Program-made: the position numbers and the translations under genes
Notes under the pieces: model-generated
The model's input: the letters and a program-made list of their open reading frames with translations, nothing else
What the model was told of the DNA's origin: nothing
Databases searched by the model: none
NCBI GenBank assembly: GCA_965222715.1
Contig: OZ244961.1
Span: 140,609 to 204,608, forward strand
Direction: 5' to 3'
Origin: Minisyncoccota bacterium
Lineage (GTDB): Bacteria > Patescibacteriota > Minisyncoccia > Phycocordibacterales > JABMNX01
Length of the DNA stretch: 64,000 nucleotides
Shown here: one piece after another, positions 7,433-59,039 of the stretch
How positions within the stretch are numbered: position 1 is the stretch's first letter
Layout of the letters: each line of letters opens with the position of its first letter

Positions 7433-7480
7433 TAAATTTAGATCTAGTCAGTATACTCATGCTACGAGGAGGTGTACATT

Positions 7481-8155
7481 ATGAGTGACAGTACCGCTAT
7501 TCCGCGTGTTGGAGATATCTCTGAGCGCGAGCTCGAGAACCTTCCGCACAAAACTCTGGTCGCGTTCGCACTGCGTGCGCAGTCGTTGGCAACGATCGAC
7601 GACATGACCCAGATTCTGAACCATCGCGCGTTCGAAGAAGAGGCCACTCGCCACTTCAACCGTATGAAGCGTAATGGTGATGAAGGGGTGATGCTTCTTC
7701 TGGACATCGACCTCTTCAAGAGGGTTAACGACACCTACGGCCACCTCGGCGGTAATGAGGTGATCAAAAAAGTTGCCAGCATCATGGAGGCATGTACTCG
7801 GCCCAGCGATCTCTGTGGACGCTATGGTGGGGAGGAGTTCATCATCTTCCTTCCCAATACCGGTAAGCAAGAAAGCAAGCTGGTCGCCGAGCGGATCCGC
7901 ACCATGGTCGAAGGGTCCACGGTGAAGTTCGAATCCCACGACATTTCATGCACGGTGAGTATCGGCCTCGCACTTCTTTCTGATGCGGAAGATCTCGAAG
8001 GCCTGATAGGTTCGGCCGACCGAGCGCTCTACAAGGCAAAAGGCGGAGGTCGGAATCGTGTCGTCACGGCTGATGCGAATCTCAACGAAAAGCGTCGCTT
8101 TACTGGAAGCAGCGATCGTCGTGGTCAAGATGTTCCGGATCGTCGGAAATCCTAA
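7481..8155 (+). CDS. diguanylate cyclase (GGDEF domain), GC-rich, likely horizontally acquired
   Basis: GGEEF active-site motif, RxxD I-site (RPSD) five residues upstream, conserved DxLT..NRR-like segments; codon GC well above neighbours; track start 7472 is a GTG inside the RBS, so ATG 7481 is preferred. Confidence 0.8.
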   Translation: MSDSTAIPRVGDISERELENLPHKTLVAFALRAQSLATIDDMTQILNHRAFEEEATRHFNRMKRNGDEGVMLLLDIDLFKRVNDTYGHLGGNEVIKKVASIMEACTRPSDLCGRYGGEEFIIFLPNTGKQESKLVAERIRTMVEGSTVKFESHDISCTVSIGLALLSDAEDLEGLIGSADRALYKAKGGGRNRVVTADANLNEKRRFTGSSDRRGQDVPDRRKS

Positions 8156-8178
8156 ACATTCATCTCGAATGAAAACTA

Positions 8179-8212
8179 GCGACCTTGGTGTACCCAAGGT
8201 CGTTTTCTTTTT
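8179..8212 (+). terminator. rho-independent terminator (GCGACCTTGG tgtac CCAAGGTCG + T-run)
   Basis: 10-bp stem and T-run after GGDEF stop. Confidence 0.6.
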
Positions 8213-8240
8213 GTTACTTTAAGTAAGTTATATTACAGTG

Positions 8241-8269
8241 GTATAGATTTTGGAGAGGTGGCAGAGTGG
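8241..8269 (+). repeat. direct repeat of the tRNA-Ser(GGA) 5' end plus 7 upstream bp (truncated tRNA 5' duplicate)
   Basis: GTATA.ATTTTGGAGAGGTGGCAGAGTGG recurs at 8359-8389; followed by a 13-bp perfect hairpin GAAGAAACACAAActgcTTTGTGTTTCTTC. Confidence 0.7.
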
Positions 8270-8367
8270 AAGAAACACAAACTGCTTTGTGTTTCTTCCG
8301 AAGCGTAGCGAAGGAGGACGACCCGAAGCCACCTCGTCCTGTAAGGCCAAAATACGAAGTATATTTT

Positions 8368-8455
<88 letters not shown>

Positions 8456-8504
8456 ATCTAACAGCTAGCACGAAGACCTTAATGCTTTAGTGCTTAGATA
8501 AATT

Positions 8505-9056
8505 ATGACTTCAAGAAAGATTAAAGTTCCAGAATTAGATTCATACTCTCATTGGCCGGAAAAGCCATATCAGTGGATGCTGACAGGATTAATTCATACG
8601 ATTCAAAAAGTTGATGAGGTAGAGGCAAATTATTTAGTTGCTCTTGGTTTGGTATGCTACACAGAATTTATGGGTCATGAGGTTTTGAAATTTAGAAAAT
8701 TACCAAATGGTTCTGGACAGGGTAAAAATGCATTTAACTTATTCGTTGGAGAATATATGGGTTATCAGGAGTTGTTAGATAAGCATGAAGAAGTTTATGA
8801 TTGGTTTAGGTGTGGTTTGTGTCATGAGTTCAAAATTAAAAATATCGATGGAGGAACTGAAAGTGGTGTATTCCATTTTTTTGTTGGAAATTCTGAAGAA
8901 GTAAAAAAAGTAAAGAAATTAGTTGATGCAGATCCAACAAAAGGTATAGCAGTTTCTAGTCAAGGGAAAAGAATTTTGTTTATAGAACCTTACCTGCACG
9001 ACTTTCAAAAAGGGGTAGAAAAATTCTTGAAAGAGTCCGGAAAAATTGAAATGTGA
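8505..9056 (+). CDS. hypothetical protein (very AT-rich, Cys/His-containing)
   Basis: 183-aa ORF right after tRNA-Ser; no recognisable domain. Confidence 0.45.
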   Translation: MTSRKIKVPELDSYSHWPEKPYQWMLTGLIHTIQKVDEVEANYLVALGLVCYTEFMGHEVLKFRKLPNGSGQGKNAFNLFVGEYMGYQELLDKHEEVYDWFRCGLCHEFKIKNIDGGTESGVFHFFVGNSEEVKKVKKLVDADPTKGIAVSSQGKRILFIEPYLHDFQKGVEKFLKESGKIEM

Positions 9057-9191
9057 GAAAATCTTGATGCGCACGAGGACCTTAATTTCAATAAACTAAA
9101 ATAGTTAAAAATAACCTTGCTGGGCTTGACCGACCACGGTTCCAGCCCGAGGTAGCCCGCATTTGTTTTAATACGTGTATACTTTATAAAT

Positions 9192-13346: not shown

Positions 13347-13680
13347 TAGCTTGTATTGGGTAGTTACTGGATATAGTTTCTATATCTAGAGGAAAGTCCG
13401 AACACGTCCACGTAAGTGGAGAAGGGTAGCGGGTAACACCCGTCTAGGGCAACCTAAGAGGTGCGAGCAGAGACGCCTAATTCGAAAGATGAGGGACTCC
13501 TTCGGGAGTAGCTCTGGTGGAAACACTAGAAGTGAAACGGCTAAATCCTTACCTACGTGCAAGGCCGTGCTGAGTTTAACTCAGAGTGCCGCTTGAGGTG
13601 TACAGTGATGTACATCCCAGATAAATGACTACCGTCGTCATTCGTGGCGATACAGAATTCGGCTTATAGATACAAGTGCA
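13347..13680 (+). ncRNA. rnpB: RNase P RNA (bacterial type A)
   Basis: GGAAAGTCCGAACAC P4 strand, AGGGCAACC-type internal segment, 3' ACAGAATTCGGCTTATAG matching the conserved ACAGAAcCCGGCUUA; P1 pairing GCTTGTAT/ATACAAG; P3 hairpin 13362-13386. Confidence 0.8.
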
Positions 13681-13690
13681 ACATATGGTA

Positions 13691-21255: not shown

Positions 21256-21282
21256 CCGAAATTAAAATACTGATATAAAACC

Positions 21283-21421
21283 AGTGTTTTAATTTTGGTC
21301 TCAGGAATCGAAAGACGGAACGAGCGGTAGCGAGTGAGTCCGGGTAGGAGCCACTTCGTACTATTCCAGTATACTGGCATAGTACGTTAGTGAGCTGACA
21401 CCGATTCCTGGCGGGGGCACA
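21283..21421 (+). repeat. tRNA 3'-flank structured element, copy A (ends in 19-nt repeat of the tRNA-Arg 3' end)
   Basis: core TCGAAAGACGGAACGAGCGGTAGCGAGTGAGTCCGGGTAGGAGCCACTT-hairpin-TAGTGAGCTGACACCG then CGATTCCTGGCGGGGGCAC, identical to 21237-21255; homologous to copies at 48970-49098, 57131-57228 and 58836-58952. Confidence 0.7.
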
Positions 21422-21586
21422 AAACTGCAAGAAAACCATACTTACGTCTCATTTCTTGCGTTTTGTGAAGTGGGGCGATATCAAGTGAAACGAGACCATC
21501 AGCCAGTGTTGTACTCTCCATACTATGAATTACATTCCTTGTTTTATTTAGCACTTTAAAAATGTATATGGTTTAATTTATTTATC

Positions 21587-48969: not shown

Positions 48970-49098
48970 TTTCGGTGCCCGGGACGGGAGTCGGTGTCAG
49001 CTCACTAAGCGTTATGCGCTAAGTGGCTCCTACCCGGACTCACTCGCTATCGCTCGTTCCGTCTTTCGACTCCCTTGAACCAAAATTAAAACACTGAC
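48970..49098 (-). repeat. tRNA 3'-flank structured element, copy B (24-nt repeat of the tRNA-Leu(TAA) 3' end)
   Basis: minus-strand reading: CAGTGTTTTAATTTTGGT-TCAAGGGAGTCGAAAGACGGAACGAGCGATAGCGAGTGAGTCCGGGTAGGAGCCACTT-hairpin-TAGTGAGCTGACACCGAC-GTCCCGGGCACCGAAA. Confidence 0.7.
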
Positions 49099-49121
49099 CC
49101 TCGCCAGTGTTTCAATTTCGG

Positions 49122-49240: not shown

Positions 49241-49312
49241 AGGCACGGGCGGGAATCGAACCCGCGCATCGCGGTTTTGCAGACCGCTGTGTTACCACTT
49301 CACCACCGTGCC
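49241..49312 (-). tRNA. tRNA-Cys (anticodon GCA)
   Basis: cloverleaf by eye, U73; anticodon loop CTGCAAA. Confidence 0.85.
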
Positions 49313-49454
49313 AAATTTTAATTAGTCTATCACGATTCCCGCCCGTCTCGGGCGGTCTCGATCCTTACAGGATCAGTACAGGTTGTCGATATTTTACTTC
49401 GTCCCTCATAAAATATCTGACAACCTTTTTCGACGCTACGCAATCTCGCGTCTC

Positions 49455-49508
49455 AACCCGCGCATCGCGGTTTTGCAGACCGCTGTGTTACCACTTCACC
49501 ACCGTGCC
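49455..49508 (-). pseudogene. truncated duplicate of tRNA-Cys (5' two-thirds only, no T-arm 3' strand or acceptor 3')
   Basis: 54 nt identical to 49259-49312, then diverges into long hairpins (49383-49425, GATCCTgtaAGGATC, CCGCCCGagaCGGGCGG). Confidence 0.7.
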
Positions 49509-57018: not shown

Positions 57019-57130
57019 TTTATAGCTTATTGGTGGGGGATTTGGCGCCAGTTCTAAACTCACTCTGTTCGTTAAGAACTCGCTGCCCCGTCGTTCAAAT
57101 CACTCTCGGTAGGAAATTTATGATTCCCTA

Positions 57131-57228
57131 GGCGTCAGCTCACTAACCTCAAAATAGTTTTGTTAACAAAACTATTTTGAGGAAGTGGCTCCTGCCCGAG
57201 CTCGCCGTCGTTCGTTCCTCACGACATG
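57131..57228 (-). repeat. tRNA 3'-flank structured element, copy D (degenerate, 3' of tRNA-Tyr)
   Basis: minus-strand GGAACGAACGACGGCGAGCTCGGGCAGGAGCCACTTCCTCAAAATAGTTTTGTTAACAAAACTATTTTGAGGTTAGTGAGCTGACGCC; nearly identical to copy C in the hairpin region. Confidence 0.6.
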
Positions 57229-57285
57229 GCTCCGCTTCACAAAACGCAGAAAACCAGACGCAGGTCTGGTTTTCTTGCAGTTTTG

Positions 57286-57369
57286 TGCGCCGGGAGGGAT
57301 TTGAACCCCCGTAGGACTAAGTCCGTCAGATTTACAGTCTGATGCAATTGACCACTCTGCCACCGACGC
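57286..57369 (-). tRNA. tRNA-Tyr (anticodon GTA)
   Basis: cloverleaf by eye, long variable arm, A73; anticodon loop CTGTAAA. Confidence 0.85.
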
Positions 57370-57394
57370 ATTTCACATTCCGTTATATATTTTA

Positions 57395-57467
57395 GGACGT
57401 TACGGACACGTCCGTCAGATTCTTAACATTATTGGTCTGAAGCAACTAACCACTCTGCCACCGACGC
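57395..57467 (-). pseudogene. decayed partial duplicate of tRNA-Tyr (acceptor 5', D-arm, anticodon arm with 15-nt loop, no T-arm)
   Basis: TGCGTCGGTGGCAGAGTGG identical to the tRNA-Tyr 5' end, then diverged TTCAGAC-15nt-TCTGACGGAC. Confidence 0.6.
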
Positions 57468-57577
57468 AATGTGGCCTATTTTAGCCTGTTTGTCCTGTTT
57501 TCTCAACCCTTCTGTAACAAGATTTATACAACTATACAACTTGTATCATTGTTTTCATCAAGCTACTATTAGGTGTA

Positions 57578-58772: not shown

Positions 58773-58835
58773 CAATGATACAAAACAATAGCGTTTAGCT
58801 ATTATGTTGTAACTATCATTTCGAGGATTCAAGTG

Positions 58836-58952
58836 GACTCGAAAGACGGAGCCGAAGGCGAGTCCGGGCAGGAGCCACTTCCTCAAAATATTTTATGTTA
58901 ACAAAAGTATTTTGAGGTTAGTGAGCTGACGCCGAGTCCTCGTGGGCCCGCA
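58836..58952 (+). repeat. tRNA 3'-flank structured element, copy C (21-nt repeat of the tRNA-Trp 3' end)
   Basis: GGACTCGAAAGACGGAGCCGAAGGCGAGTCCGGGCAGGAGCCACTT-hairpin(CCTCAAAATA...TATTTTGAGG)-TTAGTGAGCTGACGCCGAGTCCTCGTGGGCCCGCAA. Confidence 0.7.
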
Positions 58953-59039
58953 AAACATTTTTCATACACCTTAGAATCCACCCCTCTTACTATTTCGTCA
59001 TATGAAGAAATAGTAAGATAGTGTGTTACGTAGAATCTG

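Follow-up and report, generated by a model that had tools for sequence, protein, structure and literature searches.

What does it mean when the beginning of a tRNA gene is found a second time, a short distance ahead of the intact gene? The question is posed by the gene for tRNA-Ser(GGA) in a 64,000-nucleotide stretch of DNA from a Minisyncoccota bacterium of the Patescibacteriota (assembly GCA_965222715.1, contig OZ244961.1, forward-strand positions 140,609 to 204,608; this whole stretch is the window, and all positions below are counted from its first letter). An earlier note on this DNA had remarked on a truncated duplicate of the tRNA followed by a hairpin, and had seen a recombination hotspot in it. 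We find that the segment 8252-8367 is one complete copy of a conserved non-coding unit of ~100-125 nt, termed the D-type unit, which lies directly upstream of tRNA-Ser in many Patescibacteria (otherwise called the candidate phyla radiation, CPR). With about even confidence we read it as a structured repeat element that piggybacks on the tRNA gene and is co-transcribed with it as a leader. The unit is part of a broader group of small elements, seemingly not described before, which are found on both sides of tRNA genes and combine a copy of one tRNA segment with its complement.

The intact tRNA-Ser(GGA) gene occupies 8368-8455 on the plus strand, where it is called by ARAGORN and matched by the Rfam tRNA model with 62.4 bits. 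The upstream copy, GTATAGATTTTGGAGAGGTGGCAGAGTGG (8241-8269), and the downstream copy, GTATATTTTGGAGAGGTGGCAGAGTGG (8359-8385), differ by a 2-nt indel in their leader part and share an exact 23-mer, ATTTTGGAGAGGTGGCAGAGTGG. Its upstream occurrence (DR1, 8247-8269, plus strand) consists of five leader bases and positions 1-18 of tRNA-Ser(GGA), with G1 at 8252, while the downstream one (DR2, 8363-8385, plus strand) includes the first 18 nt of the gene itself. The two start 116 nt apart and are separated by 93 nt that contain no open reading frame (ORF). The reported duplicate is accordingly real, with the correction that its second copy ends at 8385 and not at 8389; because the exact match spans 23 nt within a distance of 116 nt, chance can be ruled out as its source. 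DR1 ends on the conserved D-loop GG of the tRNA copy, and this GG forms the first two base pairs of a perfect hairpin (H1, 8268-8281 pairing with 8286-8299, plus strand, loop CTGC), the stem of which has 14 bp, one more than had been counted before.

The spacer is not arbitrary sequence. A metagenome scan with a pattern in which only the two tRNA-Ser copies, together with five bases following the first of them, were fixed and the remaining spacer was free, returned 32 loci, 31 of which have the D-type architecture upstream of a tRNA-Ser (cga, gct or tga). At 12 metagenome loci the best nucleotide matches, of at least 150 nt, are to loci in named CPR genomes, and several of them also match the window. 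A covariance model (R1), seeded with 26 units from other genomes and excluding the window sequence, matches 8252-8365 on the plus strand over its entire length (model positions 1-115 of 115) with 91.8 bits (E = 1.3e-18), and nothing else in the window. In the alignment the window copy has every block of the family, the conserved blocks include ones outside the tRNA-derived parts, and the copy displays all five features by which membership was judged. A search of the literature found no published description of D-type units or of the T-loop units introduced below. Rfam 15 at the gathering threshold recovered only tRNAs and RNase P RNA in the whole window, and at E-values up to 10 on both element regions (8150-8480 for the serine locus) it gave nothing meaningful beyond tRNA, and no ribozyme or group I or group II intron.

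The blocks follow each other in a fixed order. First comes the copy of the initial 18-23 nt of the cognate tRNA, and second the long hairpin H1 that starts from the D-loop GG, with a covarying stem and a conserved tip (CAAACUGCUUUG; AACUGCUU type). In the window this tip reads CAAACTGCTTTG (8278-8289); it was proposed earlier that the hairpin might recur as a motif elsewhere, and the tip is indeed conserved across genomes, though not repeated within the window. The third block, CCGAGCGNAGCGAGG, carries a GCGNAGC mini-hairpin with a GNA triloop, represented in the window by GCGTAGC (8303-8309, plus strand) inside the conserved block CCGAAGCGTAGCGAAGGAGG, for which the aligned family consensus is AGCGNAGCGAGG; GCGTAGCG occurs four times in the window against an expectation of 0.59. 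The fourth is formed by ACGAAGCCAC and a complement of the acceptor 5' strand (tRNA positions 1-11). Its counterpart in the window, the internal complementary segment or 'guide' GCCACCTCGTCC (8328-8339, plus strand), is reverse-complementary to tRNA 1-11 except for one bulged G, making 10 of 11 pairs ungapped and 11 if one bulge is allowed, and its distal part is identical to the tRNA 3' acceptor strand. The second helix pointed out before, GGACGA with TCGTCC, is likewise present (8316-8321 and 8334-8339, plus strand). The fifth block is a small variable hairpin, a position taken in the window by the mini stem-loop CCTGTAAGG (8338-8346, plus strand). Exact copies of the latter are found in the window only at 8338 and at 49363, where the same motif terminates an element of another family (T2, see below) at tRNA-Cys; the motif CTGTAAG is also present in T2 elements of other genomes. 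The sixth and last block is an A/U-rich mini-hairpin leader, AAUACGAAGUAUAUU or GCGACAAUACGAAGUAUAUU, which runs up to position +1 of the tRNA. In the window it is AATACGAAGTATATT plus TT (8351-8367, plus strand), with an ATAC-GAA-GTAT mini-hairpin: the leader proper at 8351-8365 is followed by TT and then G1, and overlaps the leader part of DR2. An identical leader 15-mer lies directly before +1 in many D-type family members.

The surroundings of the unit bear on how it might be transcribed. A terminator-like hairpin with a T-run (8178-8204, plus strand; its palindromic stem is also called on the minus strand) closes the upstream gene, which encodes a GGDEF protein, and therefore suggests that the unit and tRNA-Ser form a separate transcription unit. 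H1 (8268-8299) was not called as an intrinsic terminator, being followed by CCGAAGCG rather than by a qualifying U-run; the site at 8178-8204 is the sole terminator-like one on the plus strand. A scan of 8100-8560 for sigma-70 promoters found none.

Conservation of the unit is in large part conservation of structure. Across an alignment of 30 sequences, nine of the 14 pairs of H1 show compensatory changes, and the U.G pair that closes it is kept in 28 of the 30, so that the tRNA-sense strand is the one that folds. In 12 of 30 units the complement of tRNA 1-11 forms 10 or more of the 11 pairs, compared with 1.9% of shuffled spacers, and over the family its pairing with the tRNA includes 42 G.U against 18 A.C oppositions. 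At one locus (L143; loci from other assemblies are designated by L numbers) the upstream copy has diverged from the tRNA, yet still matches the internal complement, which suggests that the helix between copy and complement is what is being maintained. For the stretch 8243-8455 the predicted RNA fold has a free energy of -92.1 kcal/mol (z = -6.5). The folding molecule may be RNA or single-stranded DNA: the G.U-type pairs favor RNA, while the numerous GCGNAGC mini-hairpins are typical of stable DNA hairpins.

Occurrence of the unit is patchy and in places tandem. It is always in sense orientation and strictly tied to tRNA-Ser genes, but among CPR genome loci selected for an unrelated reason only 2 of 13 tRNA-Ser genes have a 5' partial copy, and in the window Ser(gga) bears the unit and Ser(cga) does not. 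Which isoacceptor bears it varies among genomes, and tandem units are seen at L126, L131 and L147. Taking all tRNAs of the CPR genome loci together, 18 of 216 have an upstream 5' partial copy, three of which resemble the case in the window (L090 at Ser-cga, L079 at Ser-gct and L110 at Leu-taa). Comparison of the locus with others, along the line that had been proposed, gives a twofold answer: the unit recurs at 31 of the 32 loci returned by the metagenome scan, but the syntenic locus L062 (GroEL to HtpX-GGDEF-tRNA-Ser(gga)) is without it and has an element of the T1 family at the 3' end of the tRNA instead. Two further loci combine both ends. At L079 (1575-4960) a tRNA-Ser(gct) with a D-type unit upstream is followed by 3.2 kb of cargo, which includes a gene resembling HNH homing endonucleases (two HNH_repeat domains and an HNH domain), and then by a T1 core and the copied 3' part of the tRNA. 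At L152 (1400-1840) a tRNA-Ser(gct) has a 21-nt 5' partial copy with a hairpin as well as a T1-like 3' element. The T1-like core of L152 is divergent (GAGAACACTT, then CTTAGTGATTCGTGAC / CGAATCCC), from which it follows that scans with the exact core under-count the T1 family.

Is the serine locus the only one of its kind in the window? The same arrangement had been reported at tRNA-Cys and tRNA-Tyr, and upstream partial copies do exist there, but the three are different kinds of unit and R1 matches only that of tRNA-Ser. At tRNA-Cys, 54 nt are repeated exactly (49455-49508 and 49259-49312, spacing 196). The partial copy and its spacer (49313-49508, minus strand) comprise tRNA positions 1-54, ending at T55, and a 142-nt spacer of the T2 family. 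T2, a second T-loop family, is built of AAGGTTGYC, a hairpin and GACAACCTGTACTGANNCTGTAAGNNT up to C56, with the motif GACAACCTGTACTGANNCTGTAAG, and has homologues behind tRNAs at no fewer than five other loci; in the window its spacer also holds tRNA-Cys 56-68 both in a decayed copy and as a perfect reverse complement. At tRNA-Tyr the similarity extends over 34 nt at 91% identity (57435-57468 and 57337-57370, spacing 98). This decayed partial copy (57370-57468, minus strand) begins with the acceptor 5' strand and extends up to and including the variable arm; its anticodon loop is enlarged, the T-arm is missing, and no recognizable unit was found with it.

When all tRNAs of the window were compared with the window, 3' partial copies emerged downstream of tRNA-Arg, tRNA-Leu(taa) and tRNA-Trp. 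These three, and a variant behind tRNA-Tyr, have in common a core of CGGGYAGGAGCCACTT, a hairpin and TTAGTGAGCTGAC, which defines the T1 family; in all, six of the 13 tRNAs in the window bear an element of one kind or another. A covariance model of T1 (R2), which comprises the guide, a three-way junction, GGAGCCACU and UAGUGAGCUGAC, and the tRNA copy from C56, locates them behind tRNA-Arg(cct) (element 21258-21420, match 21299-21413, plus strand), tRNA-Leu(taa) (48970-49119, match 48982-49078, minus strand), tRNA-Trp (58774-58953, match 58830-58944, plus strand) and tRNA-Tyr (57122-57284, match 57122-57246, minus strand), the last lacking the direct copy of its tRNA that in the other three extends from C56 to the 3' end. 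Apart from the guide and one hairpin, the elements at Arg and Leu are nearly the same. Two further stretches look like degenerate tandem elements: after the tRNA-Arg element the start of the tRNA-Tyr element is repeated at 21421-21500 on the plus strand (CAAAACTGCAAGAAAACC to GCGTTTTGTGAAG), and after the tRNA-Tyr element there is a weak second R2 match (57033-57107, minus strand, E = 0.006).

A genome scan with the T1 core gave 106 stretches, nearly all from Patescibacteria/CPR, with hosts among Paceibacteria, Kaiserbacteria, Spechtbacterales, Saccharibacteria and Peregrinibacteria, and with the core positioned just 3' of tRNA genes of nearly all amino-acid types. This distribution makes a CPR origin of the window almost certain, and its gene content agrees. 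From the tRNA onwards the element consists of a hairpin (H0), the guide, a three-way junction, a variable stem with a bulged A, a long stem and the tRNA copy, which starts exactly at the T-loop C56 in all 48 of the 48 clean cases. The guide is the reverse complement of tRNA 56-62, extending up to 67, and the two bases after it pair with T54 and T55 (33 copies tallied); in the few copies whose tRNA has G55 the first post-guide base is mostly C, as judged by eye, with one such case in the tally. The three-way junction has a tandem G.A and a bulged A, its junction nucleotides are paired, and in an alignment of 35 sequences its 3-bp helix GNC/GN'C covaries (A-U 12, C-G 9, G-C 9, U-A 1). Likewise, the outer pairs of the long stem, which include the two bases before C56, covary (C-G 70, U-A 16, G-C 6). 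The guide covaries as well.

The direct repeat around T1 elements has no fixed length (11-81 nt), and copies away from tRNAs have no direct repeat at all; a target duplication of fixed length was rejected for T1. Such copies are found 70-400 nt behind protein genes with no tRNA nearby (L069 at 5688, L101 at 4418, L023, L038, L030 and L103). As their guide still pairs with sequence after the core, the module can evidently exist without tRNA sequence. The cargo ORFs upstream of T1 cores that have no tRNA nearby show no common recombinase family and include a single gene resembling HNH homing endonucleases. A scan of viral contigs for the T1 core produced 13 matches, all attributable to chance and lying in coding-like GC-rich DNA. 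A retro-origin from mature tRNA was also considered and rejected: CCA follows 9 of 53 3' copies and 5 of 53 genes, both being mostly followed by CA(A), and the lack of enrichment after the copies argues against such an origin. In the same material (L014-L119 and the window) the base after the discriminator is C in 50 of 53 tRNA genes, the commonest triplet being CAA and not CCA, and the same holds after partial copies. At L017, L094 and L115 (also L022 and L095) the downstream copy of the T1 element ends in CCATCTCCAC, like the 3' end of tmRNA; at L017 and L094 these elements lie downstream of homologous ORFs of ~147 aa, which may encode SmpB. ARAGORN called no tmRNA at these tmRNA-like T1 loci.

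The D-type and T1 families, of which T1 is much the commoner, are built to a common design: a tRNA piece, a hairpin, a complement of the tRNA, a structured part, and a second tRNA piece that starts where the pairing of the complement starts. In addition, H0 has an H1-like tip, GCAAACUGCUUUGC, in 15 of 107 T1 copies, against an expected ~0.03 occurrences of the hexamer per copy. Common descent of the two families is suggested by the sequences rather than demonstrated, since R2 misses the serine unit.

How, then, might the D-type unit live? As a structured repeat element riding on tRNA-Ser it would have no gene of its own, would be transcribed with the tRNA as its 5' leader and would be removed by RNase P at +1. 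The upstream tRNA copy would serve as a decoy 5' strand that pairs with the internal complement, so that the unit folds on itself and, with its complement occupied, does not trap the real tRNA. Spread or exchange among tRNA-Ser genes, and growth into tandem arrays, could then proceed by recombination within the ~20-nt bracketing repeat. Among known elements without genes, MITEs (miniature inverted-repeat transposable elements) and other non-autonomous repeats are comparable in being ORF-less, multi-copy and sometimes tandem, but the D-type unit ends without the terminal inverted repeats of a MITE, and in place of a short target-site duplication of fixed length its bracketing repeat is 23 nt of tRNA sequence. 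Integrases of the Cas1 type make long target duplications, as exemplified by casposons at tRNA 3' ends and by CRISPR repeats. The ~20-nt direct repeat of target sequence that brackets our elements is reminiscent of these, but its length is not fixed and no casposase or Cas1 was seen.

Several observations weigh against this picture. Movement of the unit is deduced, and the search with the GGDEF protein gave no close relative with which filled and empty sites could be compared within a species. Selection for a host function, acting on a locus that is passed on vertically, could explain the compensatory H1 changes seen among tRNA-Ser(gct) loci just as well, and the family sample itself is biased, given that the scan pattern demanded A plus DRAA after the first copy. 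In the predicted minimum-free-energy fold of the precursor, the real 3' acceptor strand is taken up by the decoy 5' strand, and the real 5' strand by the complement. As the two alternative pairings use identical sequences, the unit could compete with folding of the tRNA, and on this modelled fold it could interfere with or regulate tRNA-Ser rather than be neutral. Finally, the link to the T1 family is by design, the common hairpin tip and a by-eye similarity of 25 of 34 nt. R2 does not detect the serine unit (the hairpin region alone scores, at 8.4 bits and E = 3.9), leaving homology of the unit with T1 unsupported by this model.

These points lead to the alternative that fares best, namely that the unit serves the host, either as a remodelled tandem copy of tRNA-Ser that controls the folding, processing or level of tRNA-Ser, or as a separate tRNA-like mimic RNA released by RNase P. 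In its distal half the complement is identical, in sense, to the 3' acceptor strand of the tRNA, often with G, the discriminator of tRNA-Ser, coming next; owing to this identity, the unit can also be read as a stripped-down mimic of tRNA-Ser. The shape predicted for it would include an acceptor-like helix (positions 1-7 with a strand like 66-72, plus G73), a D-arm with a long hairpin and one further stem-loop. The compensatory changes, an upstream copy that either keeps the sequence of the cognate tRNA or changes in step with the internal complement, the unvarying sense orientation and linkage to tRNA-Ser, and the two alternative pairings in a precursor of such predicted stability would all be accommodated by a host function. 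It is harder to reconcile with it that the unit is present on only a small minority of the tRNA-Ser genes surveyed and on one of the two in the window, that the isoacceptor bearing it changes from genome to genome, and that copy number ranges from one to at least two. Moreover, units of the same design are found at the 3' end of nearly all tRNA types and sometimes behind protein genes, which looks like spread and not like a function specific to tRNA-Ser. A host-functional leader or mimic is hence a serious but clearly less probable alternative, to which we would assign about one part in four of our belief.

A further possibility is that the elements are catalytic or intron-like RNAs in which the complement acts as a guide and sets the place to be cleaved or ligated, namely the 5' border of the tRNA segment with which it pairs (+1 in the D-type, C56 in the T-loop types). 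They would be self-cleaving or self-splicing RNAs, or RNA-guided mobile elements, acting at the D-loop G19 and the T-loop C56, and the arrangement in the DNA would be their fixed trace. G19 and C56 pair with each other at the elbow of the tRNA, and breakpoints do gather behind the D-loop GG and ahead of C56. The point at which guide pairing starts is, in each of the three families, exactly where the downstream tRNA copy starts. The T1 guide moreover extends its match to tRNA 54-55, with A-A opposite T54-T55 and, from the by-eye reading and the one tallied case, mostly C opposite G55; and the T1 three-way junction, with its tandem G.A, bulged A and paired junction nucleotides, would suit such an RNA. 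Speaking against it are the absence of any Rfam ribozyme or intron match even at the permissive cutoff, the absence of CCA enrichment after the 3' copies, and the fact that the adjacent tRNA gene is always intact, so that no splicing is needed. The D-loop breakpoint, too, is ambiguous (positions 19-23), because the 5' arm of H1 resembles the D-loop. On balance we consider a guide-bearing catalytic RNA improbable.

Known introns offer partial parallels to such a guide. Group I introns use internal guide sequences (P1/P10) and group II introns EBS-IBS pairing, and here, too, an internal segment is complementary to the flank of the insertion, that of T1 spanning the junction. However, at 100-170 nt the present elements are far too small, have no Rfam intron core and require no splicing. 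In archaea, tRNA introns at non-canonical positions, proposed to transpose, are known along with split and permuted tRNA genes (PMC4090602). These resemble the present elements as small non-coding insertions in the D- and T-arm regions, related within a lineage and found in many tRNA species (PMC4090602). Unlike those introns, which interrupt the gene and are cut out by the BHB splicing endonuclease, the elements described here are bacterial and adjoin an uninterrupted tRNA, as is the case for tRNA-Ser at 8368-8455.

Should the elements act as DNA instead, the closest analogy is with integron attC sites and the attP(+) hairpin of CTX phage (XerCD, integrative mobile elements exploiting Xer), which are folded single-strand recombination sites. 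In these, as here, the annealing of inverted arms ~100 nt apart within a single strand restores a duplex resembling the target, structure is kept while sequence varies and extrahelical bases occur, and one arm lies at the junction after integration. GNA-triloop mini-hairpins of the GCGAAGC type are in turn classic stable DNA hairpins. The differences are that neither an integron integrase nor a phage context was seen here, that G.U-type pairs are frequent, that the arms are copies of the tRNA and that there is no fixed core site. Taken together, it is conceivable, though rather unlikely in our estimate, that the D-type and T-loop elements form one undescribed class of guide-bearing structured elements that recognize a tRNA by base pairing and act at its elbow bases, after G19 and before C56. 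Members of such a class could be small ribozymes, intron-like RNAs, or mobile elements guided by RNA or single-stranded DNA that regenerate the tRNA gene on insertion.

The explanation that a partial tRNA copy first brings to mind is a classical integration scar: an element with a tyrosine integrase would have entered tRNA-Ser(GGA) and later been deleted, leaving its att duplicates, with the hairpin and helices as remains of attP. Transfer RNA genes are common targets of integration, and partial tRNA copies mark the ends of islands (PMC9897764). Integrated islands, prophages and integrative conjugative elements (attL/attR) resemble our case in that a direct repeat of part of a tRNA brackets the inserted DNA and an intact tRNA is kept (PMC9897764); tmRNA is also targeted by them, as apparently by T1 here, and the T-loop is a known sublocation of crossover. 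This makes the partial tRNA copy left by integrase-mobilized islands the nearest known kind, and its defining features, when tested, are absent. What integrase att sites duplicate is the tRNA's 3' portion, beginning in the anticodon loop or the T-loop and running out to the 3' end, and they come with inserts of kilobase size and an integrase gene, none of which applies to the D-type unit. Its repeat is from the 5' part of the tRNA (-5 to +18), and its insert is ~95 nt, non-coding, structurally conserved and provided with a complement of the tRNA. The search for integrase genes that had been recommended came out negative: a Pfam search of the 49 largest ORFs of the window found no integrase, transposase, reverse transcriptase or homing endonuclease/HNH gene, and thus no recombinase. 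Again unlike integrase attP sites, related copies of the D-type and T-loop elements are found on almost every tRNA species. Above all, the 93 nt between the copies are the part that is conserved and covaries across ~30 genomes, and the remnant of a deletion would not give the same boundaries and internal structure in many lineages.

Where the scar hypothesis does find footing is in the flanking genes. The GC-rich and AT-rich flanks that had been remarked upon are confirmed, the GGDEF gene (7472-8155) having 54.4% GC and the orphan ORF at 8505-9056 having 33.7%, against 42.4% for the window. The best matches of the GGDEF protein beyond its own genome are proteobacterial, with 48% identity, compared with 36% to the product of the syntenic CPR gene; horizontal transfer probably brought the gene in or replaced it. 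No Pfam family was found for the AT-rich ORF, which is flanked on both sides by a 16-nt direct repeat, GCACGARGACCTTAAT (8468-8483 and 9071-9086). In other assemblies (L152, L154, L157/L158) homologues of the ORF are located downstream of tRNA-Ser(gct), tRNA-Ser(cga) and tRNA-Phe, and one of them adjoins a small ORF that may be read, from its sequence, as a candidate GIY-YIG-like gene. This suggests that the ORF and its bracketing repeats constitute a small mobile cassette. The cargo with its HNH-like gene between tRNA-Ser and a T1 element at L079 would fit the same picture, and tRNA loci in these organisms collect foreign DNA. The idea of a recombination hotspot therefore holds to the extent that the flanks look acquired, but the duplicate is no generic scar, its spacer itself being conserved. 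For the unit as such, an integration scar is largely refuted and very unlikely. Misassembly, which can yield short tandem-like duplications, or chance similarity has next to no likelihood, given that the two copies differ in their flanks and by the 2-nt indel, that the same architecture recurs in ~30 independent assemblies from different samples, and that R1 matches the unit so strongly. Elsewhere in the window, RNase P RNA (class A) is encoded at 13348-13682 on the plus strand, its score of 128 bits against a gathering score of 100 marking it as divergent, as expected for CPR.

For annotation it follows that partial tRNA copies of this kind are neither integrase att sites nor pseudogenes of the usual sort. 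In addition they supply two RNA-like motifs, well defined and covarying, for which models now exist and which Rfam lacks. They also raise the question of how a non-coding element can be retargeted to almost any tRNA while leaving the gene intact, for which guide pairing, folded single-strand recombination and ribozyme chemistry are candidates. A large part of bacterial diversity falls within the CPR/Patescibacteria, the genomes of which are very small. If the interpretation given here is true, many of the tRNA genes in these organisms, a large share of the total, bear families of tiny structured elements without genes of their own, and tRNA-mimicking leaders and trailers could compete with the folding and processing of tRNAs in CPR.

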